Assembly (NCBI GenBank): GCA_963923945.1 | Contig: OZ000551.1 | Coordinates: 1,557,580-1,621,579, forward strand | Length of the DNA: 64,000 nt | Direction of reading: 5' to 3' | Source: Alphaproteobacteria bacterium | Lineage (GTDB): Bacteria; Pseudomonadota; Alphaproteobacteria; G963923945 | In this document: piece by piece, positions 19,466-35,018 of the stretch | Layout of the letters: the number at the start of each line of letters is the position of its first letter | Position numbering within the stretch: the stretch's first letter is position 1 | Made by a program: the position numbers and the translations under genes | Notes under the pieces: model-generated | The model's database searches: none | Told to the model about the DNA's origin: nothing | What the model saw: only the letters and a program-made list of their open reading frames with translations

Positions 19466-20233
19466 TTATCGCCGACTGCCAAACAGTTGCAACAACAGGA
19501 TGAACATATTGACGAAATCCAGATAAATCCGCAACGCACCATGAATGGCTTTTTTCCCAGCGGTCTCGCTATCATCACTTTCATGATAGCTTTGTTTGAT
19601 CATCTGGGTGTCATAAGCGGTCAAACCGATAAACACCAGCACCCCAATCACCGATATGGCAAACTGCAAGACGCTGCTTCCCAAAAATAGATTGACCAAG
19701 CTGGCGACAATCACACCGATCAGCCCCATGAACAGGAAGGAGCCAAAACGGGAAAGATCCGTCTTGGTGGTATACCCATACAAACTCATCGCCCCGAATG
19801 TCCCGGCGGTGATGAAAAAGACTCGCGCGACCGAGGCCCCAGTATAAACAATGAACAGCGAGGCCATGGATGCCCCCATCACAGCGGCAAACAGCCAAAA
19901 CACGGTCTGAGCGGTACTGGCCCGCATACGTTCAATGCCAAAACTCAAAACCAAAATGAACGCAAAGGGGGCCAGAATAACCAGCCAGCGCAAAGGCGAA
20001 TTGAACAAAGCCTCTCCCAAGCCGGTCAAAGAGAGAATCTGTCCTTCAGGACCAAATGTCACCGCCATTTGAGCCAGCCCGTAAGCAACAATACCGGTTA
20101 ATGCCAAGGCGGAAGCCATATAATTATAAACCCGCAACATAAAGGCGCGTAGACCTTCATCAATCGCCACATCCCGGGCCTGGCCGCGCGCCGACCAAGA
20201 TGTTTGATTACGTGTTTGATTACCCAGAGCCAT
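19466..20233 (-). CDS. Bax inhibitor-1/YccA family membrane protein
   Basis: The 255-aa, 7-TM product has a charged C-terminus, matching the BI-1/YccA (TMBIM) family. Confidence 0.75.
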   Translation of the reverse strand: MALGNQTRNQTSWSARGQARDVAIDEGLRAFMLRVYNYMASALALTGIVAYGLAQMAVTFGPEGQILSLTGLGEALFNSPLRWLVILAPFAFILVLSFGIERMRASTAQTVFWLFAAVMGASMASLFIVYTGASVARVFFITAGTFGAMSLYGYTTKTDLSRFGSFLFMGLIGVIVASLVNLFLGSSVLQFAISVIGVLVFIGLTAYDTQMIKQSYHESDDSETAGKKAIHGALRIYLDFVNMFILLLQLFGSRR

Positions 20234-20854
20234 AAGATTGTTTCTCCCTACCAGTTTTCAAATGAGGATTGACCATAAAAACAGCGTTTCAGAAACTTGA
20301 GAAAATTTCAAAGACTTAAAAAACCATATTTCAGATGGTGTCTCTTACTGAAAAAATCAAGTTCTCAAAAAATCAAGTTCAACCCAATAATGATATAAAT
20401 TAAACCAAAGTCAGGTTAACGTAAAGTCAAACCCATGAAGGATTAAACCAATATAAAGATATATTCCTCAAATAAATAGAATCATCATCTGATACGACCA
20501 TCAGCCTATTAACCTCCGAGCACCGGCCACCTTATGAATGAACAAATATGAATGAACAAATGAATGAACAAGAGCCGTTGCGTTTGGGGGCAACCGCTTT
20601 ATAGAATACCGATGCGATACCATCTGAGATGAACCATCATGGCGTCTATCATTGTTCTGGTCTATCATTGTTCCAGAGCGTTGGGATCAAACGTCTTGGG
20701 ACCATAGAGTTTTGAAGGATCATAGAGTGTTGAGATCGAATGATCACCGGTTCAGCCGATATGATTGCGGTACTCAACCGGTCCCATTCTTTGATCATTT
20801 TTTCTTTGATATTTTTCCCACAGATGAGGATTGACCATAAATGAGAACTGACCA
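20234..20854. repeat. AT-rich intergenic spacer containing at least 5 different tandem repeats, flanked by an 18-bp perfect direct repeat
   Basis: The 18-bp repeat atgaggattgaccataaa occurs at 20262-20279 and again at 20824-20841. Internal tandem repeats: aaaaatcaagttc x2 (20351-20380), atgaatgaacaa x3 (20533-20572), tctatcattgttc x2 (20644-20674), and gga(c/t)catagagt(t/g)ttga x2 (20699-20734). Confidence 0.5.
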
Positions 20855-22003: not shown

Positions 22004-23008
22004 TTATAAAACGCCGCCGCCCAGCCCCTTAAAGCTATCGGTGATTTTCAATATGGCCGGCCCACCGAGAACCACAAACAGAGGCGGAAAAATAAACAAC
22101 ATCAGCGGAATAGCCATCAGAGCCGGCAAGCGGGCGGCTTTTTCTTCAGCCTTCAACATACGTTCGTTGCGAAATTCGGCTGCCAAGACCCGCAAAGATT
22201 GAGCAATCGGGGTGCCGTATTTTTCCGATTGCCGCAGACTGTTGACAACCGCCTGAATCATCGCCAGATCGGTGCGATCACTGAGATTTTCCAGGGCTTT
22301 TTGACGGCTGGGTAGAAAACTCAACTCAACCGCGGTCAATTCCAACTCGGCCGCCATTTCAGAACAGGTTTCTCGGGTTTCCCGGGCGATCCGTTTGAGG
22401 GCGGCATCAAGACTGAGGCCGGCATCAGCACAAATCACCAACAAATCAAGCGCATCAGGCAATGCTTTTGCGAGCACCGCTTTACGTTTATCGGTTTTAT
22501 TGCGCACGATAATGGCCGGCAGATAATACCCCAAACCGACCGCCATCAGCATCGCCATGAAAGATTGAAACAGGCTGATGTCAGCAACCCGGACGATAAA
22601 AAGGAAAAAGAAAGCCCCGATTCCCAAAACCCCGGCGCCAAGAATACGCAGATAGAAAAAATACAAAACTGCATCAAGACCACGATACCCGGCCCGGGCC
22701 AGCTTATTCACAATCTCTTTATGTTGTTCACCATCATCAAGCCGCATCTTCTCAACGATGCGGCTGATTGATTTCATCCCAACGAAATTGCTGCGCCGCT
22801 TGGGGTCTTTGATCTCCATAACTTTGCTGACCAGTTTTTCTCGATGCTTACCAAGGGTGCGCAAATTTTTGGCCGTTTTATCCCGCTCAACCAAAGTCAA
22901 CCAAAACACCACGGTGGCTATCGCCGCGGCCACAGCGGCGGCCAACACGGTTATATCTTCCAGATTGAGAGAGAAAAAATCCTCAAGCATTTCGATGAGA
23001 TCAGTCAT
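22004..23008 (-). CDS. tadC: Flp pilus assembly inner-membrane platform protein TadC
   Basis: T2SS-F/GspF-like topology; it lies downstream of tadB in the cpa operon. Confidence 0.8.
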   Translation of the reverse strand: MTDLIEMLEDFFSLNLEDITVLAAAVAAAIATVVFWLTLVERDKTAKNLRTLGKHREKLVSKVMEIKDPKRRSNFVGMKSISRIVEKMRLDDGEQHKEIVNKLARAGYRGLDAVLYFFYLRILGAGVLGIGAFFFLFIVRVADISLFQSFMAMLMAVGLGYYLPAIIVRNKTDKRKAVLAKALPDALDLLVICADAGLSLDAALKRIARETRETCSEMAAELELTAVELSFLPSRQKALENLSDRTDLAMIQAVVNSLRQSEKYGTPIAQSLRVLAAEFRNERMLKAEEKAARLPALMAIPLMLFIFPPLFVVLGGPAILKITDSFKGLGGGVL

Positions 23009-23024
23009 ATCAAACTTTCCGATC

Positions 23025-24005
23025 TTAAATCTCGAACCGGGCCATATTGAACATCACAAAAGCCCCAATCGCCAACCAAACCGAGGCGAAAATAAGCATC
23101 GTATGGCCGCGCGGATCAGTAAATAAAACCGATGCATATTCTGGATTAAGGGTGTGGATGACTCCAAACAGGATAAAAGGCAGGGCGCCGATAATATAGG
23201 CGCTGACTTTTGCTTCACTGGATAATGCCTTGATTTTCAGTTTTAATTGCTTGCGGCGGCGCAAAATTTCTGAGAGATTTTCCAAAGTTTCAGCAAGGTT
23301 TCCCCCGGTTTCTCGCTGGATTGATAAGGTGATGGCAAAGAATTTGAAATCGGGCAGATCCAAACGGCGCGCGGTTTCGGTCATCGCATCATCCAGGCTC
23401 ACCCCGATCTTGATCTGATCAACGATCCAGCCAAATTCTTCGGCCACCGGTCCTTTCATTTCATCGGCAATGGCGGCAAAACCATCGGTGGTCGGCATGC
23501 CGCTTTTTAGGCCTCGTACAATCAGATCAAGAGCACCGGGAAACTGTTCCAAAAATGTGGCCAACCGGTTGCTGATCATGACGCTACAGGCCAGCCAAGG
23601 CAGCGCCAGAGCCAAGATAAAGCCCAACAACACAGCGGTCGGGTAGGGGAGTTGCAGATTCCATGATGCGACAACAAAGCCGCCCAATCCGGCCCCAACA
23701 CACCATAAGGCGTAATCACCCAAGCCAATCTCACGGCCGGTCCGGGCCAAGCGATCACGTAATTGATCCGGGTTGGGGAGCCAGGCCTGAACCAGACGAT
23801 CCAGGATGGGCACTCTGCTGGTGGCTTCGCGGCGGCGTAGATTGCCGTCCAATCCAACCGGATTAATGCTGCCGCCCTTGCCGCTGATCACGCCGAGGCG
23901 TTGATCAAGATGGCGGCGGGTATGGCCGGATTGAAGACCAATCGCCAAAGCCGCCACCATAAGAATAGCGCTGACCACTGCACCGAGAATGATGATAAAA
24001 CTCAT
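23025..24005 (-). CDS. tadB: Flp pilus assembly inner-membrane platform protein TadB
   Basis: GspF-like domain; its start overlaps the cpaF stop (ATGA-type coupling). Confidence 0.8.
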   Translation of the reverse strand: MSFIIILGAVVSAILMVAALAIGLQSGHTRRHLDQRLGVISGKGGSINPVGLDGNLRRREATSRVPILDRLVQAWLPNPDQLRDRLARTGREIGLGDYALWCVGAGLGGFVVASWNLQLPYPTAVLLGFILALALPWLACSVMISNRLATFLEQFPGALDLIVRGLKSGMPTTDGFAAIADEMKGPVAEEFGWIVDQIKIGVSLDDAMTETARRLDLPDFKFFAITLSIQRETGGNLAETLENLSEILRRRKQLKLKIKALSSEAKVSAYIIGALPFILFGVIHTLNPEYASVLFTDPRGHTMLIFASVWLAIGAFVMFNMARFEI

Positions 24006-26095
24006 CGGGCCCCCCCGGGTGCCGCCACATTCTGTTCTGAAGACGCGATGATTCGCATCAATTCATTCTCCAGGCCGAAATATGCCGCCTTGGCTGCGAA
24101 ATGTGGTCGCAATCCAGAACAGATATAATCTCCATAGAGGTTGCCGTCCTTATCTTCTCCCTTAAACTTGAATGTGAACAATTCTTGAGTGGTGATGACT
24201 TCACCTTCCATGCCAACAATCTCCATGATGCTGGTGACTCGCCGCTTGCCATCGCGCATACGGCTGATCTGGACAATCATATCCAGGGCTGAAGAAATCT
24301 GGGTGCGTACAGCCCGGGCCGGTAAATTGACATTGGAAAGGCCGATCATATTCTCCAGGCGTGATAAAGCCTCACGCGGCCGGTTGGCATGGATGGTGCC
24401 CAGTGATCCATCATGGCCGGTATTCATGGCTTGCAGCATATCAACCGCTTCTTCACCCCGCACCTCACCGAGAATGATCCGATCGGGACGCATGCGTAGA
24501 GAATTTTTCAGCAGATCACGCATGGTGATTTCATTCTCGCCTTCCAGGTTGGGTGGCCGGGTTTCCAGACGCACCACATGGGGCTGCTGCAGCTGCAGTT
24601 CTGCCGCATCTTCGATTGAGACGATGCGTTCGCCTTCATCAATCATTTGCGAAATAGCGTTGAGCAAGGTGGTCTTGCCCGAACCGGTCCCCCCGGCAAT
24701 CAGGATATTGAGCCGTGAGCGTCCGGCAATCCGTAAAACCGTCTCCATGGCTGGAGAGATATTGCCCTGCTGGGCCATCATTTCTAGGGTGATTTTTTTT
24801 GCTGAAAATTTGCGAATCGAGATGCTCGGGCCATCAATCGCCAAAGGCGGAATAATGATATTGACCCGGCTGCCATCCATCAGCCGGGCATCGGCCAGCG
24901 GCATCGTTTCATCAACCCGGCGCCCGACCGCGGTGACAATACGTGATGCGATATTCATCACATGCTGATTGTCGTTGAAATGCACATCGGTCAATTCCAA
25001 CCGGCCGCCACGTTCAACATAGATCTGGTCGGGACCATTGACCATGATATCGGTGATCTGTTCATCATCAAGCAACGGCTCCAAAGGCCCCAGCCCCAGC
25101 ATATCATCCAGCAACATTTCGGTTAGTCCTTGCTGCTCAACTTTGTTCAGCTGGATTTTCTGTTCCTGCAAGACTTCACGCAAAATGCCGCCGATTTGTT
25201 TGGCGATTTGAGACCGTCCGAGCTTGCTGGCCGCCTTGACGTCAATGCGTTCAATCAACAGGGGCTGGACTTTCCCTTTGGCTTCCATGAGTTCAGAGAG
25301 GTTGACGGTGCTCAAGCGGCTGTTGCCCCGTGATGAGGTGACCCGGGCTTGGCGAATGCGTGAGCGACGCGGCTCTCGATCGCGCTCTTCTGGTTCCGGT
25401 TCATAGAGTGGGGTTGACGGTGCGGCTGGCGCAACCGGTTGCTGAGGCGGGGCCATGTGAACAGGGGGCATGGGGACCGGTTGCGGCATCATCGCCGGAG
25501 CGCCCCCTCCATTGGGCATTCCTGGATGGATTCCCGGCTGAGTCATCATTGGGGCTGTCGGCTGAGAATACGGCATGGCGGTTGGTCCGCCGGGATGGGG
25601 AGACGCATAGGGATGGGGTCCAGCTTCCGGCATTGATGGTGCTGGTGGTGGCGTCATGGGTGCCGGGGCGGTTGCTGTGGGGGGTGGGGTTACTGCTGTG
25701 GCGGTTGTTGGTAAGGCTTCGGGTACTGGTGGTGGAGCCGCGATATTCTGCCCATCGGCCCAAGCCATATTGAACAAAGCCGCCAAAAGAGATTGATGAT
25801 CCGCCGCATTGAGGGTGATGGCGGCCCGGGTTAGGTAGTCATCAACAAAAATTTGGATTCGGCCTTGGATATCTTGCATATCACCGGTATTGGGGGATGC
25901 GGAGCGAATGGCCGCGATATGGGGGCTGAGAATCTGATACAATTCACCAACCCGATCTTGTGGTGTGGCTGAATTGATGGCCGCAGGTGTTTCTTGAGGC
26001 TGGTTATACTGGTGAGATGGCCCGGTTTCCGGGACCATTCCTTGGTTGACCGTTCCTTGATTGACTGTTGCGGTGGCACTTTGAGTATTATACAT
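24002..26095 (-). CDS. cpaF: Flp pilus assembly ATPase CpaF/TadA with a roughly 280-aa N-terminal extension (novel N-domain plus Pro/Ala/Met-rich low-complexity linker)
   Basis: The C-terminal roughly 420 aa are canonical: GLGPLEPLLDD, Walker A GGTGSGKTT, and Asp/His boxes. The N-terminal 280 aa have no CpaF counterpart; residues about 120-280 are an APPPVPEALPTTATAVTPPPTATAPAPMTPPPAP… low-complexity tract. Confidence 0.9.
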   Translation of the reverse strand: MYNTQSATATVNQGTVNQGMVPETGPSHQYNQPQETPAAINSATPQDRVGELYQILSPHIAAIRSASPNTGDMQDIQGRIQIFVDDYLTRAAITLNAADHQSLLAALFNMAWADGQNIAAPPPVPEALPTTATAVTPPPTATAPAPMTPPPAPSMPEAGPHPYASPHPGGPTAMPYSQPTAPMMTQPGIHPGMPNGGGAPAMMPQPVPMPPVHMAPPQQPVAPAAPSTPLYEPEPEERDREPRRSRIRQARVTSSRGNSRLSTVNLSELMEAKGKVQPLLIERIDVKAASKLGRSQIAKQIGGILREVLQEQKIQLNKVEQQGLTEMLLDDMLGLGPLEPLLDDEQITDIMVNGPDQIYVERGGRLELTDVHFNDNQHVMNIASRIVTAVGRRVDETMPLADARLMDGSRVNIIIPPLAIDGPSISIRKFSAKKITLEMMAQQGNISPAMETVLRIAGRSRLNILIAGGTGSGKTTLLNAISQMIDEGERIVSIEDAAELQLQQPHVVRLETRPPNLEGENEITMRDLLKNSLRMRPDRIILGEVRGEEAVDMLQAMNTGHDGSLGTIHANRPREALSRLENMIGLSNVNLPARAVRTQISSALDMIVQISRMRDGKRRVTSIMEIVGMEGEVITTQELFTFKFKGEDKDGNLYGDYICSGLRPHFAAKAAYFGLENELMRIIASSEQNVAAPGGAR

Positions 26096-26102
26096 ATCTC
26101 AA

Positions 26103-27377
26103 TCAATCTCCCATCAGCCAGCGACTGGCTTTTTCGAGAATTGTCTCCGGTTTGGTGGTAACATCATGACCTATCATGCGTTGGAGAACAGGAAGAATAT
26201 GGGCATGGGGTGCGACCATCGCCAAAGGTTTGCCGACATTCAAAGCCCGACTAACCGCGCTTGCTTCATGCGGTACAGAAAAATGAATCGGTATTCCCAA
26301 AGCCCGGGAAAATTGATCATGTTCAACTTGTCCGGGGGCACCGGTTGGGGCATTGGTCACAATCTTGATGGTTGCTTTGCACCCTGAGCGTTCAAGGGCC
26401 GCGCGCACACGAATGGTATCGCGTAGGCCGATCATGCTCAGATCACTGACAATAAAAATCTCATCAGCATTGATCGCCGCTTCGGGAAAATCCAACAGGC
26501 GGTAACGCGGCAGATCACAAATGATATGAGTAAACTGGCCCCGCAGTTCACTAATCAAGGTCTCAACCGCATCCTCGACCAGGTCAATATCTTCGCCGAT
26601 CTGTATATCCGCAGACATGATGGATAAGCTGTGGCTGTATTCGGAAAAAGCACCGGATAAAAAATGCGAATCGATCCTTTCCGGGTTTTCCAAAGCCGTC
26701 CTCAACGCTCCACCCGAATCCAGATTCAACTGCAGGCCCACACAGCCATATTCCAAATCAAAATCAATCACCAACACCTGGGCCGGTTTTTCTTGGGCTG
26801 ATTTTTCTTGGGCCGGTTTTTCTCTGGCCTCATCATGGGCGATGGCAAAAGCATAATTGACCGCCAGAGTGCTGGCCCCAACGCCGCCGCGCGCACCGAT
26901 GAATGTCACCAAGGAACTGCTCTGGGGCTTGGTTTTGATGATCCGGCTGTTATCGCCGGAGTCGTCGCCAGAATCCAGCTCCAGGCTTGCGCGTAATTCT
27001 TCTGGATCAAGCGGTTTGGTGAGATAGGCTTTGGCTCCAGCTTCGCGCATACGGGTGGTTGAACCGGCTGAATCATCCTGACCGATGACAATAATTTGGG
27101 TATTGTCTCCATAGGCGGCATCCATATCATTAACCGCCGCCAAAGGGTCGGATTGATCACTCACATCAATCACCGCAAATGGCGGCAGCATCTGTGACCA
27201 TGCCAGAAAATCACCCACCCCACCGTGATGGACACAATTGGTTTCCAGACCGTGTTCCTGGGCCATTTGTTTGATCGTCTCCAGGCAATCGGGATCATGC
27301 GAAAAAGCGATGAAAACATCCGACATAGAATCGGCCTCCAACCGCGACGATGACTGATCAGTGGGGCGCATTAACAT
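26103..27377 (-). CDS. cpaE: pilus assembly protein CpaE/TadZ (N-terminal receiver-like domain plus MinD/ParA-like ATPase with deviant Walker A)
   Basis: Contains a GARGGVGAST P-loop-like segment and a MinD-family fold. It carries an in-frame 15-bp x3 tandem repeat coding KPAQEKSAQEKPAQ (26781-26825). Confidence 0.75.
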   Translation of the reverse strand: MLMRPTDQSSSRLEADSMSDVFIAFSHDPDCLETIKQMAQEHGLETNCVHHGGVGDFLAWSQMLPPFAVIDVSDQSDPLAAVNDMDAAYGDNTQIIVIGQDDSAGSTTRMREAGAKAYLTKPLDPEELRASLELDSGDDSGDNSRIIKTKPQSSSLVTFIGARGGVGASTLAVNYAFAIAHDEAREKPAQEKSAQEKPAQVLVIDFDLEYGCVGLQLNLDSGGALRTALENPERIDSHFLSGAFSEYSHSLSIMSADIQIGEDIDLVEDAVETLISELRGQFTHIICDLPRYRLLDFPEAAINADEIFIVSDLSMIGLRDTIRVRAALERSGCKATIKIVTNAPTGAPGQVEHDQFSRALGIPIHFSVPHEASAVSRALNVGKPLAMVAPHAHILPVLQRMIGHDVTTKPETILEKASRWLMGD

Positions 27378-27402: not shown

Positions 27403-28134
27403 TTATTGTCCTAAGCCTACTTCTTCGACCTGTTGGGTCTCTCCTTGCCGGTAGCTTTCCAGAGATTTGTGGAAACGCACCGCTTGGGCCGGTTCCAAAG
27501 TCCGGCCCTGGATAAGGTCACGCGGATGGGCAACCATCAGGCTGAGATTGCGGGCGGTCGCACAGCCAAAATTGCTGCTTGGGGCGTTGTTGATGCCGCT
27601 GTTCGAAGAACCAGACCAATCGGGGCAAGATGGGGGAATAGCCACATAACGCACCGCCTCCACAACAATGCCGTTGGCCTCATCAGAACGGGCCGCCCGG
27701 GGGGGCAAAAGATCCGATTGAAAGCCGCGGATGGCCGCGTATTCAGCGACCACTGCTTGTTGTTGAGCCAGAAGATCATCATTGATCATGCTGTCATCGC
27801 CACTCTCATCGCCACTCAACGGCGATAACCCATAAATCCTTAAAACCGGGTGCTGACCAGTTTTGATCTGACGCCGCAAGAATGCATCAAGAGTCTCGGC
27901 GGCTTGGGCATCAAGAGAACTGTAGCCATCCAGAAAGGGAATCACCTGAGAGACCAAAGAGACGTCAACTTCTGGTTCTTGCCATTTGAAATGACCGGCC
28001 GCATTGGGAGGCTCACCGGCCGAACAGGCACTGATCACAAGGGCCATCATGGCGATGCCGAACCCCTTGAGGAGGGTGTCCGGGCTTTGATAGGGAAAGT
28101 TTCTCATTGAGCGGGTTATTCCTTTCATGGTCAT
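27403..28134 (-). CDS. cpaD: pilus assembly lipoprotein CpaD
   Basis: Has a signal peptide with a lipobox (LVISAC). The size and position between cpaC and cpaE match CpaD. Confidence 0.6.
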   Translation of the reverse strand: MTMKGITRSMRNFPYQSPDTLLKGFGIAMMALVISACSAGEPPNAAGHFKWQEPEVDVSLVSQVIPFLDGYSSLDAQAAETLDAFLRRQIKTGQHPVLRIYGLSPLSGDESGDDSMINDDLLAQQQAVVAEYAAIRGFQSDLLPPRAARSDEANGIVVEAVRYVAIPPSCPDWSGSSNSGINNAPSSNFGCATARNLSLMVAHPRDLIQGRTLEPAQAVRFHKSLESYRQGETQQVEEVGLGQ

Positions 28135-28147
28135 GAATCCAACCTTT

Positions 28148-29551
28148 TTATTCGATGATGAATCCGGCCGCCCCGGTCAATGCGCCGCCATCGGGACCAA
28201 TCGGGCGGCTGCGGCCATCGGCGATGCGGCTGCGATAGAGGTGACCGCCGAATATGCGCTCAGAGTCACTGGCCGGTCGGAATCCATCACCGGGTGTGGC
28301 CAGGGTGGCAACACTGACCGGGCGAACGATATAAGGGGTGACAATAATCACCAGCTCGGTTTCCTGATCGCGCAGTTGGTTAGAACGGAACAAGGTCCCC
28401 AAAATCGGGATATTGGCCAATCCGGGCAATTTATTCAGACTCTGGTTGAGATCGCGCTGCAACAAACCACCGATGGCAAAACTCTGGCCGGATGCCAGCT
28501 CAACCGTGGTTTCAGCCCGGCGGGTGGTGATGGACGGGATATTGAGACCGCCGATGGTGGTCGAGCTCTCGGCGACATTGCTGACTTCCGGACGCACCCG
28601 CAGACTGATCCGGTTTTCGGATAACACCACCGGGGTGAAAGAGAGGCTCACCCCAAAATTTTTAAACTCCACTCCCGGGGTTCCGGTGGCGCTGGGGGTC
28701 GGGATAGGAATTTCACCCCCAACCAGAAAACTGGCGGTCTCCCCGGAAAGGGCGGTCAAGTTGGGCTCAGCCAGCACAGTAACCAAGCCTTCGGTTTCCA
28801 ATGCTTCCAAGACCCCCTTGCCCGAGATGGCACCGGTTGCATAATCACCGGCCAACACATTGGCCCCACGGGTGACCACATCCTCACCAAAGGCCCCACC
28901 AAAACCCCAAATCAGTGAGCTGGCTCCACTCTCAAACACTTGCTCCCATTGCAGGCCGAATCGTTTGGTCGCTGAGCGGGAAACCTCAGCCACCTTGACC
29001 CGCAAATGGACTTGCTGGCTGCTGCTAAGATCAAGCTGATTGACCACCGAACCGCCCTCACCGGCATAACTCTTGGCGATGGTCTCAATATCCAAGGCTG
29101 CGGTGGCATCCGGGACCACCCCTTCCAGAGTCAAGCCTCCCTCATAAGAAGATACCGTGGGCGGTAAGGGCAGATTGGCTTGCTCCAATGCCCGATCAAG
29201 GCCGTCGATATCACGGCCGACCACCACTTTGCGGGCCAAGATGATCCGTTGTTCACCACCCATGACGAATAGGCTGGTTTGGCCGTTCTTTTTTCCATAA
29301 ACATAAAGCAGACGCGGCGATTTTAATTGAATATCGGCAATTTCCGGCTGGGCAATGAACACACTGGTGGCTGAGGAATCCAGACGAAGAACCTGCCCCT
29401 GATCCACCTGTATAGTGATGGGGGTTGGTTCGGCCAGGATCACTTCATTGGCGTTGGGGCTGCGGTTTGGTGTGCTGGCCAAAGCAATCACCGCGATGCC
29501 AACAAGCCCAAAATGTAAGATCAATCGGGAAATGGTCTTTCTCATTGCCAT
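28148..29551 (-). CDS. cpaC: Flp pilus secretin CpaC/RcpA
   Basis: The 467-aa product has a signal peptide, N-terminal BON/secretin-N domains and a C-terminal secretin domain (…GGLLQRDL…PILGTLFRS…). Confidence 0.85.
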   Translation of the reverse strand: MAMRKTISRLILHFGLVGIAVIALASTPNRSPNANEVILAEPTPITIQVDQGQVLRLDSSATSVFIAQPEIADIQLKSPRLLYVYGKKNGQTSLFVMGGEQRIILARKVVVGRDIDGLDRALEQANLPLPPTVSSYEGGLTLEGVVPDATAALDIETIAKSYAGEGGSVVNQLDLSSSQQVHLRVKVAEVSRSATKRFGLQWEQVFESGASSLIWGFGGAFGEDVVTRGANVLAGDYATGAISGKGVLEALETEGLVTVLAEPNLTALSGETASFLVGGEIPIPTPSATGTPGVEFKNFGVSLSFTPVVLSENRISLRVRPEVSNVAESSTTIGGLNIPSITTRRAETTVELASGQSFAIGGLLQRDLNQSLNKLPGLANIPILGTLFRSNQLRDQETELVIIVTPYIVRPVSVATLATPGDGFRPASDSERIFGGHLYRSRIADGRSRPIGPDGGALTGAAGFIIE

Positions 29552-29609
29552 TCCTTTACTGTTTTTTCGTGTGTTTTTTTCATGTGTTTTTTATGTTTTC
29601 CGGTAGGGA

Positions 29610-30488
29610 TCAGAAACTTTCAATATTGGTCGCCGGGCCGCGGATCACTTCGACATTCCAGCTCTGCATCACCGGCTGTACGTTATTTCTGTTCCCCAGA
29701 GGGGTTCCCGCTTGCAAGGCGTCACTGATCTCGTAATCCCAAATCGGTTTACGATTTTCATCCAGGATCACCTCTAAATCTGGATCATCCTGCTCCATAT
29801 CCATCGCTTCGGCGATCCCGAACAGGCTGCGTAAAGACAGAGATAGTTGTCCCAAAGAACCGGCAACCGATATAATTTTGGCTTCTTTGGGTGTTACTTG
29901 TAGGGTGACCGTACTGGCGATAATCGGATCACGATCATCGGTATCCGAGCGTTGATCCACCGCCAGGATACGGATATCCTCAAGCAACAGTTCGGTGACT
30001 TGGCGGTCTTCAATCGAATGGGTGAGCAGGATATCCACCCGGTCACCAGGGAAAACAAAACCAGAAATACCGGTTGTCGCGCTGACCGGAATGGAAACCG
30101 CTTGCGATCCAGGCTTGAGAACAGCGGCCATGAAACCCCGTTCCCCCGGCAACACCACCATATTATGGGAAACCGGTTGCCCGGCATCCGCATTCACCCG
30201 GATGACCGCGCCAACAAATTCATCAATACTGGCATCGCTCTTGGTGAGGAAACTGCCGGGAATATCAAAAGCCGGCCAATCTTGCCATTTGAGATCATTG
30301 CTTTTAATGAAAGAGCCAACCGGTAAATTACGCCGGGCCACCAAGACCGAACGAGTCTCTATAGGCGACGGGACGCTGATCGCTTCAATGGCGCGGCGTT
30401 CATTATCCAGCCAGTTGCGAGCCAGCAGAGCGGTCACCAGACCAGCGGTAATCGCGGCCGCACCAAGGATGAGCAAACGCTTATTCAT
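29610..30488 (-). CDS. cpaB: Flp pilus assembly protein CpaB (SAF domain)
   Basis: The start is chosen at MNKRLLILGAAAI (30488), overlapping the cpaA stop in the palindromic tcatga. The track ORF extends to 30542. Confidence 0.8.
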   Translation of the reverse strand: MNKRLLILGAAAITAGLVTALLARNWLDNERRAIEAISVPSPIETRSVLVARRNLPVGSFIKSNDLKWQDWPAFDIPGSFLTKSDASIDEFVGAVIRVNADAGQPVSHNMVVLPGERGFMAAVLKPGSQAVSIPVSATTGISGFVFPGDRVDILLTHSIEDRQVTELLLEDIRILAVDQRSDTDDRDPIIASTVTLQVTPKEAKIISVAGSLGQLSLSLRSLFGIAEAMDMEQDDPDLEVILDENRKPIWDYEISDALQAGTPLGNRNNVQPVMQSWNVEVIRGPATNIESF

Positions 30489-31078
30489 GAGATCCCTTCC
30501 ATAATGATGATGTTGCGTAAAAACAGTTCGGTTGCCACCCAACCGCCCCCGGCCGCAATGGCGATTCCGTAGGGCAAATCGTCATAGGCTGCCTTTTTGT
30601 TGGAGCTGGTTTTTTGGTCGGGCCATGCCGCCGGTAAAAGCCGCATGGTCGGCGGCTTGGGATCACTTTTGGTCCAAGGAAGAGAAGCCATTAAGAGATA
30701 TAAAACAGCCAATAGGCCGCCGCTTAGGGAGACCACCAAGCCAAAAATCAAAGAGAGTTCAAAACCACACCACAAACCACAAGCGGTCATCAGCTTGACA
30801 TCGCCGCCGCCCATGGCACCCCGGGCAAACAAAAAAGCCCCCAGGCAAAAAGCCAGCGCCGCTACGCTAAAACTGCCCAGCCAATCGACCGGTTGCGGGG
30901 TGACCCAAGCATAGAGAAAAAAACACACCGCAATACCCGCACAGACCAGGTTGGGGATGCGCCGCTCAAACAAATCCTCCAAAGCCGCCCGCACCAGCAA
31001 ACCAGCAAAAGCCATGAGAGCCAGCATGGCCAAAATGGTCGCAACATTGATATGAGAGCTTATGGACATAGCGGTCAA
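30485..31078 (-). CDS. cpaA: prepilin peptidase CpaA/TadV (A24 family)
   Basis: Polytopic; contains the conserved catalytic Asp region (GAMGGGDVKLMTACGLW). Confidence 0.8.
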   Translation of the reverse strand: MTAMSISSHINVATILAMLALMAFAGLLVRAALEDLFERRIPNLVCAGIAVCFFLYAWVTPQPVDWLGSFSVAALAFCLGAFLFARGAMGGGDVKLMTACGLWCGFELSLIFGLVVSLSGGLLAVLYLLMASLPWTKSDPKPPTMRLLPAAWPDQKTSSNKKAAYDDLPYGIAIAAGGGWVATELFLRNIIIMEGIS

Positions 31079-31833: not shown

Positions 31834-32040
31834 TTAAGGTGCTTTGTTGCTTTGTGTTGCTGTTTTGGCCTTGCCCACTTCATCACCGACATGTTTAAAT
31901 GTCGCCTCGATCGAATCCCCGACACTGGTCATGGCGGCAATCGCGGCAATGGAGATCAAGCCAGCCAGCAAGACATACTCAATGGCCGTGGCACCATTTT
32001 CATTCTTCAGAAGTTTATTCACAAATTTTAACATCGACAT
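31834..32040 (-). CDS. flp: Flp family type IVb pilin (major pilin of the Tad locus)
   Basis: The 68-aa prepilin has a leader MSMLKFVNKLLKNENG, the processing motif G/ATAIEYVLLAGLI and a hydrophobic helix. Confidence 0.8.
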   Translation of the reverse strand: MSMLKFVNKLLKNENGATAIEYVLLAGLISIAAIAAMTSVGDSIEATFKHVGDEVGKAKTATQSNKAP

Positions 32041-32306: not shown

Positions 32307-32990
32307 CTATCCCTTGGGTTTGAGCGAGTCGGGAGGATTTTGAATGCTGTCTCGGGGTGTCTCTTGGCCAGCCATATGGGCGATACGTTGTGGGCTGTGA
32401 TGATCAACAACATTGAAGGTGGCCGGAACCCGCGGGCGATAAAAGGCCCGGTGATAAATACGTTGCGGGGAGGCAAAAATATCGGTCAGGAACCAAGGTT
32501 GGTATTCATAGAACACCTCCCCAGCAATGACGGTTTCCCAGGTTTCGGGGACAAAATTGGCCGGGAAGTTGGGGTGTTGTTTTTCCCGACCCAGTTCACT
32601 TTGGACATTCAAGGTCCCGCCACCGGCATTTTGCTTGATGATGGTTGGCTGGGGATCACTCGGGTTGCGTCTTTGGATGATCGAGATGATGATTCGTCCA
32701 TCGGGTTCATTGTCCCGGAAACGGAAAGGCTGCATCAAACTTGGGGCAATCGCATAAATTGTCTGCAGTTGGCTGTTGTCGATCAAGGTTTCACGGGCGG
32801 TCAAATCGGCCACCCGATTGGCCAAATAGCTCAGCTTCTGATTCAAAAATAGGTAGAGAACCAATTCACTGCCGCCAAGGGCGAGCAAAACCAGCAACGG
32901 GATGACGATGGCAAATTCGATCAAGACCGAGCCGCGTTCACCCTCTCCTTGCCGTTTATTGGCCCTCATACTGATCCATCGTATCATCAC
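32307..32990 (-). CDS. TadE/TadF-like pseudopilin (TadE N-terminal domain)
   Basis: The N-terminus ERGSVLIEFAIVIPLLVLLALG matches the TadE-like processed N-terminal domain; 227 aa. Confidence 0.65.
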   Translation of the reverse strand: MMIRWISMRANKRQGEGERGSVLIEFAIVIPLLVLLALGGSELVLYLFLNQKLSYLANRVADLTARETLIDNSQLQTIYAIAPSLMQPFRFRDNEPDGRIIISIIQRRNPSDPQPTIIKQNAGGGTLNVQSELGREKQHPNFPANFVPETWETVIAGEVFYEYQPWFLTDIFASPQRIYHRAFYRPRVPATFNVVDHHSPQRIAHMAGQETPRDSIQNPPDSLKPKG

Positions 32991-33037: not shown

Positions 33038-33646
33038 TCAAAAGGGTTCGTTGCGCACCGCAATCCGTGCTGAAACCTGGCTGTTGCCGAGGAACGGCTC
33101 CATAATCGGACTGATGGCATCCCAGGGATGGCTGGCCTCATAGAGGACAACATCATTCCCCCCACCCAGGCCTTGGCGGCCTTGATCCGGGTCCCAACGG
33201 CCGTTGCCATTGGTATCGGTGTAATGCTCACCGGGATCATAGCGGCCGTTGCCGTTGCCATCATTGAAGGGTTCGGGCTGGTCGATATTATCAAAAGAAT
33301 CATAGACCTTATAGGTCAGGGTGAGTTGGGTGTTTTCAAACAAGCCGTAGCTGTTTTCCAGAATGATCCGGCGGATCATGTCTTCGCGTGAAGACCCGGC
33401 CAAGCTCCGGCCGACCGCCCCAAAACGCGAGGCCTCCTGAATGCCCGACTGAAGAACAATATCGGCGAAAAAACGCAGCGAAAACTCGGCAATACCAATG
33501 ATCAAAAGAAAAAAAATCGGCAGAATATAGGCCATTTCCAGAACCGTCGCGCCGCGCTGGTCGGCAGCCAAACCAGGCCGTAAAGATGCGGGATGCATGC
33601 GCATATCACGCATATGTAAAAAAGAATGAGCAGCTACCATCATCAA
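33038..33646 (-). CDS. TadE-like pseudopilin with duplicated Asp/Asn/Gly-rich putative Ca-binding loops
   Basis: Has the TadE motif GATVLEMAYILPIFFLLIIG and an internal segment FNDGNGNGRYDPGEHYTDTNGNGRWDPDQG (two NGNGRxDP repeats). The start is uncertain; an alternative is MRMHPASL. Confidence 0.65.
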   Translation of the reverse strand: MMMVAAHSFLHMRDMRMHPASLRPGLAADQRGATVLEMAYILPIFFLLIIGIAEFSLRFFADIVLQSGIQEASRFGAVGRSLAGSSREDMIRRIILENSYGLFENTQLTLTYKVYDSFDNIDQPEPFNDGNGNGRYDPGEHYTDTNGNGRWDPDQGRQGLGGGNDVVLYEASHPWDAISPIMEPFLGNSQVSARIAVRNEPF

Positions 33647-33761: not shown

Positions 33762-35018
33762 TTAATTGACCACCCGCAACGTGGTGAGCTGATCGCCGAT
33801 ATTGATGAACGCCTCTTCCAATGTTTTTTGATCCACCGATTCAAAAAAATGATCGGCTGAACTGGCGCAATCCAGCATCACTTGCCGGGCCTGGGTGTTG
33901 TTGAGTTCCAGACCGATGGTATAAATCACCACCCCTAAGGTTTTCATGGCCGAACAAGCGGCACTCTGCTGGGCATCAGAATGGGAGTTGTCATTGGCAC
34001 CATCGCTGAGCATCACCACAATTTTTTGAACCCCGGGGAGCTGGTAATCGGCAATATCCTGAAGCCCCCAATCATTGCGCCAGCGGGGTGATAAGCTGCG
34101 CCAGCCCCATAATATGCCGTAATCACCACGGGTTGAGCTGAAAAGGCCCGGAAATATCTGGGCGATATAGCCATGGAGAGCATTTTTATTATTGGTGAGG
34201 GGCTGGATGGTTTTGTTGCATCCGTCAAGGGCAAAGGCGATTTGAAATTTGCCATCACCAGGTGGTGCGTCCCCTTGCTCGCCATTGACCCGTTCTTGAA
34301 CACAGCCCCGCCAAAAAATCCAATCGGCAAAACCGCCGTCGGCCCAGCCGTTGCGGCTGCTGCCGATATTGATCACCGAAGTGTAAGGAATGACCGAAAC
34401 CCGGACATTGGTCGGATAATCCTCAGGCCCAAACAGAATATCAATCAGCCTGTTGGCCCCCTCTTTGACGCTGTTTATTCGGCTTCCCCGCATGCTGGTG
34501 CTGGCATCAATAACCAGGGCCAGTTCAACCCGACCGGAACTGCCCCGTTGGATCGCTGACGAAACCTGGACCGGGATCGTATTGATCCCGAACAAGCGGC
34601 TAAAAGCGGTCTCTACATGTGCGGTTGCGGTGAGCGAGAGTTGGCCCTCTTGCTCTTGTATATTCAACTGCATACTGTTCCCGACCCAGCCTTCCAGGGA
34701 GAGGGCATTGGCAGAAAAATAATCCTCAGCAACGCTTTCTCTTTGGGCGGATTCGGCGTGCATGGCTGCCAGACCGGCCGAATCAAGGGCCGCGCGCATA
34801 CCAATCTGAACCGTGTAAACACTCACCCCATCCATCGCCAACCCCATCAAGCCGAGAATGGGCAAGGCCATCACCGCCAATGCCAGGGTGCTGACACCCC
34901 GTTGATCGCTATGGAATGCTTTGGCTCTGATCATCGCCACCAGTGCCGCGCAGCTTTGCGCCCCAATCATCACCCAGTCGTCTCCAAACAAGTTGATGGG
35001 ATCGTGGATGTAAGACAA
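33762..35018 (-). CDS. tadG: TadG-like pilus assembly protein with vWA domain
   Basis: Has the N-terminal TadG/Flp-pilus-assembly TM segment (STLALAVMALPILGLMGLAMDG) and a vWA MIDAS motif (LALVIDASTSMRGS). Confidence 0.7.
   Translation of the reverse strand: MSYIHDPINLFGDDWVMIGAQSCAALVAMIRAKAFHSDQRGVSTLALAVMALPILGLMGLAMDGVSVYTVQIGMRAALDSAGLAAMHAESAQRESVAEDYFSANALSLEGWVGNSMQLNIQEQEGQLSLTATAHVETAFSRLFGINTIPVQVSSAIQRGSSGRVELALVIDASTSMRGSRINSVKEGANRLIDILFGPEDYPTNVRVSVIPYTSVINIGSSRNGWADGGFADWIFWRGCVQERVNGEQGDAPPGDGKFQIAFALDGCNKTIQPLTNNKNALHGYIAQIFPGLFSSTRGDYGILWGWRSLSPRWRNDWGLQDIADYQLPGVQKIVVMLSDGANDNSHSDAQQSAACSAMKTLGVVIYTIGLELNNTQARQVMLDCASSADHFFESVDQKTLEEAFINIGDQLTTLRVVN

Follow-up and report, generated by a model that had tools for sequence, protein, structure and literature searches.

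To our knowledge, CpaF (TadA) is alone among pilus motors in powering extension as well as retraction. Research on this protein now centres on its N-terminal disordered region (IDR) and on the three-helix bundle (3HB, also called N1), which is predicted to make the contact with the platform and to act as steric determinant in a proposed model of motor inversion. The CpaF motor core is already known, as are the IDR of class II and the FHA-IDR plan of class III.

The class II protein of Caulobacter crescentus (IDR-3HB-NTD-CAD; PDB 8RJF/8RKD/9E24-9E29; 501 aa) has just 79 residues ahead of the 3HB, with no folded domain among them. Removal of its IDR reduces pilus extension and retraction and leaves the ATPase activity unchanged (PMC12019362). 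Deletion of NTD0 in Caulobacter leaves phage sensitivity intact (PMC11300603), so N-terminal appendages may be modulatory only. CpaF is encircled by a ring of CpaE dimers and moves closer to the membrane in the piliated state (PMC13170226). The 3HB/N1 is predicted to touch the platform's N-terminal helices, and inversion of the motor has been proposed (bioRxiv 10.64898/2026.02.24.707734, which also gives the retraction-linked role of R387). Class III proteins, e.g. E3HIW0 of Achromobacter xylosoxidans (FHA-IDR-3HB-NTD-CAD; Yen et al. 2025, PMC12019362), are mostly betaproteobacterial and carry a folded N-terminal domain joined via an IDR. The archaellum ATPase FlaI (PDB 4II7) also has the 3HB-NTD-CAD core and a small extra N-terminal element whose function is separable from assembly; this element is a directly attached 29-residue segment, with no duplicated bundle and no long IDR.

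The window analysed here is a 64,000-nt stretch of an alphaproteobacterial genome (contig OZ000551.1). Its minus strand carries a Tad locus in the order cpaA-B-C-D-E-F-tadB-tadC, with Flp pilin and TadE-like genes upstream:

22004..23008, minus strand: tadC/cpaH, platform protein
23025..24005, minus strand: tadB/cpaG, platform protein, its start overlapping the cpaF stop (ATGA)
24002..26095, minus strand: cpaF/tadA, an ORF of 697 aa plus stop, whose product is identical to P0001 of the public collection
26103..27377, minus strand: cpaE/tadZ (REC-like and MinD/ParA-like ATPase), directly upstream of cpaF
27403..31078, minus strand: cpaD, cpaC (secretin), cpaB (RcpC) and cpaA (prepilin peptidase), in the same operon upstream of cpaF

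The plus-strand frame over 24002-26095 is full of stops and the coding strand is the minus strand, on which we recovered the 697-aa ORF described in an earlier note on this DNA, including the peptides quoted there. The start ATG of cpaF (26093-26095) lies 7 nt past the cpaE stop, and its TGA shares an ATGA with the tadB ATG, an overlap that the note had also pointed out. The ORF is a genuine cpaF within a complete cpa/tad pilus operon. Scans for promoters and terminators returned sites no commoner than expected by chance.

The encoded protein is comprised of the following parts:

25964..26095, minus strand: disordered N-tail, aa 1-44, rich in Gln, Thr and Pro (pLDDT 32-45)
25748..25963, minus strand: N-terminal three-helix bundle (3HB'), aa 45-116 (AF2 pLDDT 78-94)
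25301..25747, minus strand: disordered linker, aa 117-265 (149 aa; pLDDT 31-40, no secondary structure)
25310..25390, minus strand: acidic-then-basic segment, aa 236-262 (EPEPEERDREPRRSRIRQARVTSSRGN), just ahead of the canonical 3HB
25076..25300, minus strand: canonical CpaF three-helix bundle (3HB, N1 or NTD1), aa 266-340, ending GLGPLEPLL and aligning to the 3HB of Caulobacter CpaF
24005..25075, minus strand: NTD (N2) and C-terminal ATPase domain, aa 341-697

Judged by its domains and conserved residues, the gene product is a complete CpaF/TadA motor ATPase with its catalytic residues intact, serving a Tad (type IVc) pilus, in agreement with the complete ATPase claimed earlier. PF00437 (T2SSE) spans aa 334-612 (E 5e-66), and the alignment with the CpaF structures of Caulobacter begins at aa 279 (8rjf) or aa 200 (9e24) and runs to approximately aa 686 (E 1e-143), with the 3HB, NTD and ATPase domain matching end to end. 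The ATPase domain contains (i) the Walker A K474, (ii) the Asp-box E499, (iii) the Walker B E544 and (iv) the His-box H569, and these residues, together with R404, R410 and the Arg finger R534, sit in invariant alignment columns. P573/R574, corresponding to the retraction-linked P386/R387 of Caulobacter, are also kept, and all catalytic and retraction residues lie at a constant offset of +187 relative to that protein, whose operon position is likewise the same. The helices of the canonical 3HB (266-283 with 286-289, 294-311 and 318-333 in the AF2 model) are followed by GLGPLEPLL, the GxGPLEPLL hinge of the CpaF/TadA family. The ATPase core of the full-length AF2 model was poor (shallow alignment) and that part was not used.

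The extension ahead of this core amounts to 265 residues (tail, extra bundle and 149-aa linker). The earlier note had put it at approximately 280 aa; a long extension is indeed present, and the canonical enzyme begins at aa 266 with a three-helix bundle of its own. The structured segment assigned to the first 110 or so residues proved to be folded, with limits of aa 45-116, aa 1-44 being disordered (AF2). The Pro-rich tract is disordered, in line with the flexible linker described in the note, and its length is 149 aa rather than about 170. Structure prediction, which had been suggested as a check, gave a confident three-helix bundle (helices 45-66, 73-90 and 97-115), seen with pLDDT 77 when the sequence was modelled by itself and 78-94 once an alignment was supplied. 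The proposed arrangement, a folded N-domain on a long disordered Pro-rich linker before a complete CpaF, therefore stands. The linker contains 28% Pro, 13% Ala and 6.7% Met and has a conserved Arg-rich stretch at its end; residues 203-265 of the present protein align with residues 15-79 of Caulobacter CpaF, both proteins having a Pro/Ala-rich disordered region before the 3HB. Searched against Pfam and NCBIfam, the extension matched no family.

The pattern of substitutions and indels indicates that the first 265 residues of the protein are translated and that selection maintains them, as the earlier view of the extension as genuine coding sequence implied. An ortholog (P0002/L001; 85% identical) retains the extension, none of the four indels between the two genes (15, 6, 3 and 6 nt) shifts the frame, and a single uninterrupted cpaF frame was found in two independent assemblies. 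In the comparison with this ortholog, dN/dS was 0.072 (dS 0.85) for aa 48-113 of the N-domain, 0.37 for the N-tail, which has one 15-nt in-frame indel, 0.385 for the linker, with in-frame indels, and 0.025 for the canonical 3HB (core range 0.016-0.025). Within the linker, the segment at aa 236-262 is better kept than the remainder (85% identical, dN/dS 0.26). An internal start near residue 280, named earlier as the observation that would overturn this view, was not found: M270, within helix 1 of the essential 3HB and without a Shine-Dalgarno-like sequence upstream, was rejected, while Mets 20, 73 and 110 are absent at the corresponding positions of the ortholog, so that no internal Met is conserved. 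In a close genome (OZ240684.1) cpaF is split across the ends of the record and its N-terminus is unreadable there. The long form of this cpaF is correctly delimited and intact and is worth keeping in the annotation, which is a modest practical result.

Profile comparisons identify the N-terminal bundle of the closest relatives as a copy of the motor's 3HB (N1) that was duplicated within the protein. The canonical-3HB HMM matched the extension in 115 of the 120 closest homologs (best E 2e-16), and hhalign of the N-copy family with the canonical family gave 99.5% (E 2.3e-22, 74 columns). The canonical copies form a clean clade apart from the N-copies, which evolve faster (mean identity 41%, compared with 64% for the canonical copies). 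It is probable that the N-domain of the present protein is a diverged duplicate of the same element. In hhalign with the N-copy family it aligned over all three helices (66 columns, P 4.5e-4), with a score of 22.8, compared with 9.4 ± 1.9 for shuffled sequences (0 of 300 reached the score) and 8.9 for the reversed sequence. Its helix starts (45/73/97) map onto those of the canonical 3HB (266/294/318) with a single offset of +221, the helix and loop lengths are the same, and the helix-1 Pro, the LN motif and the core Leu/Ile positions are shared with the 3HB copies. The HMMs reached only E 0.005-0.16, identity to either 3HB family is approximately 15%, and the two conserved Arg positions are missing; this is the most diverged of the N-copies compared. 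Taken together, the comparisons argue fairly strongly that the bundle is a fast-evolving ortholog of the N-copy of its relatives.

We consider it unlikely that the lineage acquired or invented this helical N-domain independently (for binding e.g. a lineage-specific regulator) and that the N-domain's resemblance to the 3HB is a mere likeness of small three-helix bundles, since it sits where the N-copy sits in 115 of the 120 closest homologs, and since the alignment over all three helices, the identical helix and loop lengths and the retained Pro, LN and Leu positions all speak against this. A Foldseek search with the N-domain returned only 36 matches, CpaF chains among them, a fold search being non-diagnostic for a three-helix bundle. 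An exhaustive phmmer search with aa 40-125 against 1.84 billion representatives yielded its own cluster and P0121 only, the latter being a 1329-aa repeat protein matched seven times via a short helical motif and rejected as spurious; beyond its lineage the N-domain shows no significant similarity at the sequence level.

The 3HB'-linker-3HB layout, present in the same 115 of 120 homologs, is a clade-wide architecture and not peculiar to this gene; neither this nor the duplicate nature of the bundle had been anticipated in the earlier note, which had called for such a comparison. The homologs P0004, P0021 (Kiloniellales), P0062 (Dongiaceae), P0072 (Pelagibius marinus) and P0082 show the same order of parts as the present protein: short tail, N-copy, Pro/Ala-rich linker, canonical 3HB, NTD and CAD, the two bundles being separated by the disordered linker within one polypeptide. 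In the homologs the N-copy is readily recognisable and the linker is shorter (median 61 aa), whereas the linker studied here is the longest seen and also the richest in Pro and Met among the homologs compared. Only the linker length and the divergence of the N-domain sequence are unusual in this gene. The excess of length noted earlier holds against model proteins such as Caulobacter CpaF and is smaller against the nearest relatives (520-654 aa).

The tandem-3HB layout fits none of the three published CpaF classes. The folded aa 45-116 precede the IDR at aa 117-265, whereas the N-terminus of class II is disordered and has no folded domain. The all-helical N-domain also differs from the FHA domain of class III, of which no match was found in Pfam or NCBIfam scans, and the tandem-3HB proteins are alphaproteobacterial. 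A duplicated 3HB on an IDR ahead of the motor has no place among these classes, which leaves the published classification of CpaF architectures incomplete. In many CpaFs of Alphaproteobacteria another 3HB, kept by selection, sits on the far side of the IDR, which recasts the IDR as a tether; the extra bundle and linker give a concrete handle on what the CpaF N-terminus does.

The regulatory or localisation role suggested for the extension in the earlier note is plausible. Seen against the published work on CpaF, the extra bundle may help to dock or retain the motor at the machine, acting as a docking module on a leash. Six tethers per hexamer might be held at the pilus base and would raise the local concentration of the motor, which could then move toward or away from the membrane, and even invert, without diffusing away. 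The N-copies are charge-neutral and the canonical 3HB is acidic (-4.2). The N-copies lack this acidic character, so they have probably come to bind another partner than the canonical copy, or to bind in another way, and the difference argues against plain re-use of the same platform contact. Taken as a whole, the explanation towards which we lean is that of an intact Tad motor with a translated and selected extension, in which an orthologous duplicated 3HB would serve for docking on a leash. A bolder form, to which we give little credence, makes tandem-3HB CpaF a fourth, unclassified class of Tad motor, in which the leashed N1/3HB would stay on the stationary machine (anchored either to the platform's N-terminal helices or to the CpaE ring) and the hexamer would shuttle, or physically turn over, between its extension and retraction orientations. 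If this were true, a flipping single-motor pilus would owe its processivity to the leash, and Caulobacter, with its plain IDR, would have the same function in reduced form within a short motif.

Somewhat less probable again is that the disordered Pro/Ala/Met-rich region is itself functional, whether by entropic spacing, by crowding or condensate formation or through short linear motifs that it carries, and that the bundle is a decaying relic. Caulobacter works with an IDR alone, whose truncation lowers pilus activity, the present linker is the longest in the set, and the N-copies evolve faster than the canonical ones. A relic would be expected to drift or vanish, and the far stronger purifying selection on the N-domain than on the linker (dN/dS 0.072 vs 0.385) counts against it, as does its confidently predicted fold. 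We regard as improbable a signal-input module like that of class III (FHA-IDR) or MshEN, binding a phospho-protein or a c-di-GMP-type messenger and gating the motor. The order of folded domain, IDR and motor parallels class III, and the Arg-rich RRSRIRQAR, conserved in the ortholog, adjoins the canonical 3HB, but no FHA, T2SSE_N/MshEN, PilZ or other sensor family was detected in Pfam or NCBIfam, and the nearest relatives of the N-domain are 3HB copies, without known ligand binding. Finally, an annotation or assembly artefact, with a start near aa 270-280 or a small upstream gene fused by sequencing error, has in its favour only the unusual length and the ATG at codon 270, and is practically dismissed by the single frame in two assemblies, the exclusively in-frame indels, the low dN/dS of aa 48-113, the unsuitability of M270 and the other Mets, and the fused layout in more than 115 relatives.

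A profile search with the N-copy against a set of 5.8 billion proteins returned 27 contig-end fragments only and was uninformative on taxonomic spread, and the tandem region of a relative had no tblastn match among plasmids. P0164, a candidate stand-alone N-copy, is the frameshift-broken N-terminus of a cpaF in an error-prone long-read contig. A precomputed annotation attaches PF27713, an accession absent from the local Pfam copy, to four homologs. At the DNA level, the linker has a G+C content of 0.62-0.65 and a strong G skew on the plus strand. An origin of the linker from DNA tandem repeats was rejected: the sole repeat found is a 15-nt tandem duplication in the N-tail (26033-26069, VNQGT/VNQGM).

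The 697-codon ORF that the earlier note had reported at 24002-26095 was confirmed, as were the peptides quoted from it, although its strand had to be corrected to minus; the plus-strand frame there is riddled with stop codons. The encoded ATPase (the query) is the product of the sixth gene of a complete minus-strand cpa/tad operon.

Genes of the tad locus (window positions, strand, product)
33762-35018, vWA/TadG-like gene (418 aa), further upstream
32307-32990 and 33038-33646, two TadE-like genes, upstream of the Flp pilin
31834-32040 (-), Flp-type pilin, 68 aa (MSMLKFVNKLLKNENG/ATAIEYVLLAGL), heading the locus upstream of cpaA
30485-31078 (-), cpaA prepilin peptidase
29610-30542 (-), cpaB/RcpC
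28148-29551 (-), cpaC secretin
27403-28134 (-), cpaD
26103-27377 (-), cpaE/tadZ
24002-26095 (-), cpaF, 697-aa ATPase
23025-24005 (-), tadB
22004-23008 (-), tadC

Since Flp pilin, TadE-like and vWA/TadG-like genes are all present, the Tad system appears complete. The cpaF ATG (26093-26095) lies 7 nt past the stop codon of cpaE; at the other end, the cpaF TGA and the tadB ATG overlap, as noted earlier.

Judged from its sequence, the enzymatic portion is that of an ordinary CpaF and is intact. A PF00437 match spans aa 334-612 (E 5e-66), and the alignment with solved Caulobacter CpaF structures begins at aa 279 (8RJF) or aa 200 (9E24) and extends to approximately aa 686 (E ~1e-143), with a constant Caulobacter-to-query residue offset of +187. 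The key residues are all present and do not vary among 50 homologs; they comprise Walker A K474, Asp-box E499, arginine finger R534, Walker B E544, His-box H569 and R404/R410, together with P573/R574 (P386/R387 in Caulobacter), a pair linked to retraction. Because the query retains this retraction-type C-terminal face, a bidirectional motor would be expected.

AlphaFold2 predicted three helices for aa 40-125 alone (pLDDT 77, pTM 0.67). A full-length model was built with a 50-sequence alignment; its ATPase core, poor owing to the shallow alignment, was left unused.

AlphaFold2 layout of the N-terminal region
aa 1-37, N-tail, pLDDT <50, disordered
aa 45-66, 73-90, 97-115, N-domain helices, pLDDT 78-94, folded
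aa 118-261, linker, pLDDT 31-40, no secondary structure
aa 266-283 (+286-289), 294-311, 318-333, helices of the canonical three-helix bundle (3HB, or N1), pLDDT 69-91, folded

All three helix starts of the N-domain match those of the canonical 3HB at a single offset of +221. The folded N-domain, flexible Pro-rich linker and complete ATPase of the earlier note are thus retained, with altered boundaries: the linker comprises 149 aa rather than ~170. It contains 28% Pro and 6.7% Met. In 115 relatives the linker has a median length of 61 aa (IQR 47-64; maximum 143, in the tandem-3HB relative P0006), with median contents of 10% Pro and 1.7% Met; the query linker stands at the far end of a continuous range and is no new kind. 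Ten Met and five His residues lie amid its prolines (25301-25747 (-)), e.g. HPGMPNGG and MMPQPVPMPPVHM, and several of these motifs are also present in the ortholog.

We compared the N-domain with the 120 closest homologs (core identity 64-76%, mostly 520-590 aa). Their GLGPLEPLL hinge lies at residue 170-240 (the query has it at 333), so that an N-terminal extension is normal for this clade. A canonical-3HB HMM, run only against sequence upstream of that bundle, matched 115 of the 120 (E<1e-3, best 2e-16), usually over a near-complete profile. In profile-profile comparison these N-copies matched the canonical 3HB with 99.5% probability (E 2.3e-22, 74 columns). All 68 distinct canonical copies formed one clade in a neighbour-joining tree, separate from the N-copies, and mean identity was 41% for N-copies versus 64% for canonical copies, a pattern consistent with a single old duplication, after which the N-copy evolved faster. 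Pfam accession PF27713 is attached to four homologs.

The query N-domain, very probably one of the N-copies, is the most diverged of them. Its HMM E-values were 0.16 (canonical profile) and 0.005 (N-copy profile), two conserved Arg residues are missing, and exhaustive phmmer searches gave no match beyond its own cluster apart from P0121, a large repeat protein (1329 aa, tape-measure-like by composition) whose seven matches to helix 2, via a 'GIQDAQGKAALFIDQLV' repeat, were judged chance similarity amplified by repetition. It could be an unrelated, lineage-specific helical domain, which we consider unlikely. hhalign aligned it with the N-copy family over 66 columns and all three helices (P 4.5e-4), with a score of 22.8; 300 column shuffles scored 9.4±1.9 (maximum 16.8), and reversing the sequence gave 8.9. 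Only one gap, one residue long, is needed to align it, and it retains the helix-1 Pro, the Leu-Asn opening helix 3 with the acidic residue that comes next, and the Leu/Ile positions of the core. Given also its equivalent position in orthologous proteins, the domain is very probably a diverged ortholog of the N-copy.

The extension is translated and under selection, as a comparison with P0002, the ortholog encoded on an independent metagenome contig (L001) with the same gene order, shows. This protein (699 aa, 85% identity) retains the entire extension, and the indels in the nucleotide alignment there (15, 6, 3 and 6 nt) are all multiples of three. In the disordered N-tail, 15 nt are tandemly duplicated (2.5 copies, VNQGT/VNQGM; 26033-26069 (-), aa 9-21), which resembles the product of recent replication slippage within a coding region; the ortholog is one copy short, which explains the 15-nt indel. 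On L001, cpaE is divided into three ORFs and tadB into two, probably through long-read frameshift errors; cpaF is unbroken.

dN/dS per segment, query versus ortholog (Nei-Gojobori)
aa 1-47, N-tail, 0.37
aa 48-113, N-domain, 0.072 (dS 0.85)
aa 114-235, Pro-rich linker, 0.385
aa 236-262, Arg-rich segment, 0.26
aa 263-340, canonical 3HB, 0.025
aa 341-680, enzyme core, 0.016

A bundle that is only a relic, with function residing in the disordered region (IDR), is quite improbable, as the N-domain dN/dS of 0.07 speaks against it. A sensor module, FHA- or MshEN-like, is a still more doubtful identity, and no supporting motif was found. A mis-start or fusion artefact is effectively refuted: none of Met 20, Met 73 and Met 110 is conserved in the ortholog, and M270 sits within helix 1 of the essential 3HB with no Shine-Dalgarno-like sequence upstream, which argues against the internal start near residue 280 that the earlier note had envisaged.

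Yen et al. 2025 (PMC12019362) divided 292 CpaF orthologs into (i) class I, 3HB-NTD-CAD, (ii) class II, with an added IDR, and (iii) class III, with an added FHA-IDR, and placed nearly all alphaproteobacteria in class II. The 3HB'-IDR-3HB-NTD-CAD layout of the query group matches none of these: a folded domain under strong selection precedes the IDR, which separates it from class II, and the FHA domain of class III is absent (none detected in family scans). Caulobacter CpaF differs in having only a linker (residues 15-79, which align with 203-265 of the query), and the 79 residues ahead of its 3HB are too short for a bundle. The extra domain in all likelihood arose as a copy of the 3HB of the motor itself and has since diverged. 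This tandem layout, common among related alphaproteobacterial CpaFs, is missing from the published classification, and the query is its long-linker extreme; no description of a duplicated 3HB in CpaF was found among the open-access papers searched.

In Caulobacter, removing the IDR leaves ATPase activity undiminished and lowers pilus extension and retraction equally (PMC12019362); in a separate study, deletion of NTD0 did not abolish phage infection (PMC11300603). Six CpaE dimers form a ring around CpaF, which shifts membrane-ward in piliated machines (PMC13170226). A 2026 preprint (bioRxiv 10.64898/2026.02.24.707734) puts forward a model in which the hexamer undergoes a physical inversion between extension and retraction and the platform N-termini clash with the N1 domain. 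Against this background, a second 3HB at the end of a 60-150-residue leash is most readily seen as a putative docking module, which would hold the moving motor captive at the machine. Since the N-copies are charge-neutral (mean net charge +0.1) and the canonical 3HB acidic (-4.2), a divergence in partner or binding mode is probable, and CpaE or an intramolecular site thereby becomes no less plausible as a putative partner than the platform helices. In this one lineage the pattern is reversed (canonical 3HB, 25076-25300 (-), net 0; N-terminal bundle, 25748-25963 (-), -3), and the acidic contact surface could have shifted to the N-copy.

Several further features were observed. CpaE carries a low-complexity insert, 'EKPAQEKSAQEKPAQ', soon after the P-loop region, and its receiver-domain match is weak (E 2.5e-5, under the Pfam cutoff). 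Plus-strand ORFs antisense to cpaF (24189-24968, 259 aa; 25360-25773, 137 aa, the latter mirroring the Pro-rich linker) are most likely non-coding by-products of a GC-rich coding strand. Just downstream of the operon, an AT-rich intergenic stretch (20233-20800, GC 0.34-0.41 versus ~0.52 around it) is flanked by genes for a Bax-inhibitor-like membrane protein and an aldo/keto reductase. In the closest species-representative genome (OZ240684.1, a 2.07 Mb alphaproteobacterial MAG chromosome) the cpaF ortholog, 94% identical over aa 384-690, is split between the two ends of the circular record.
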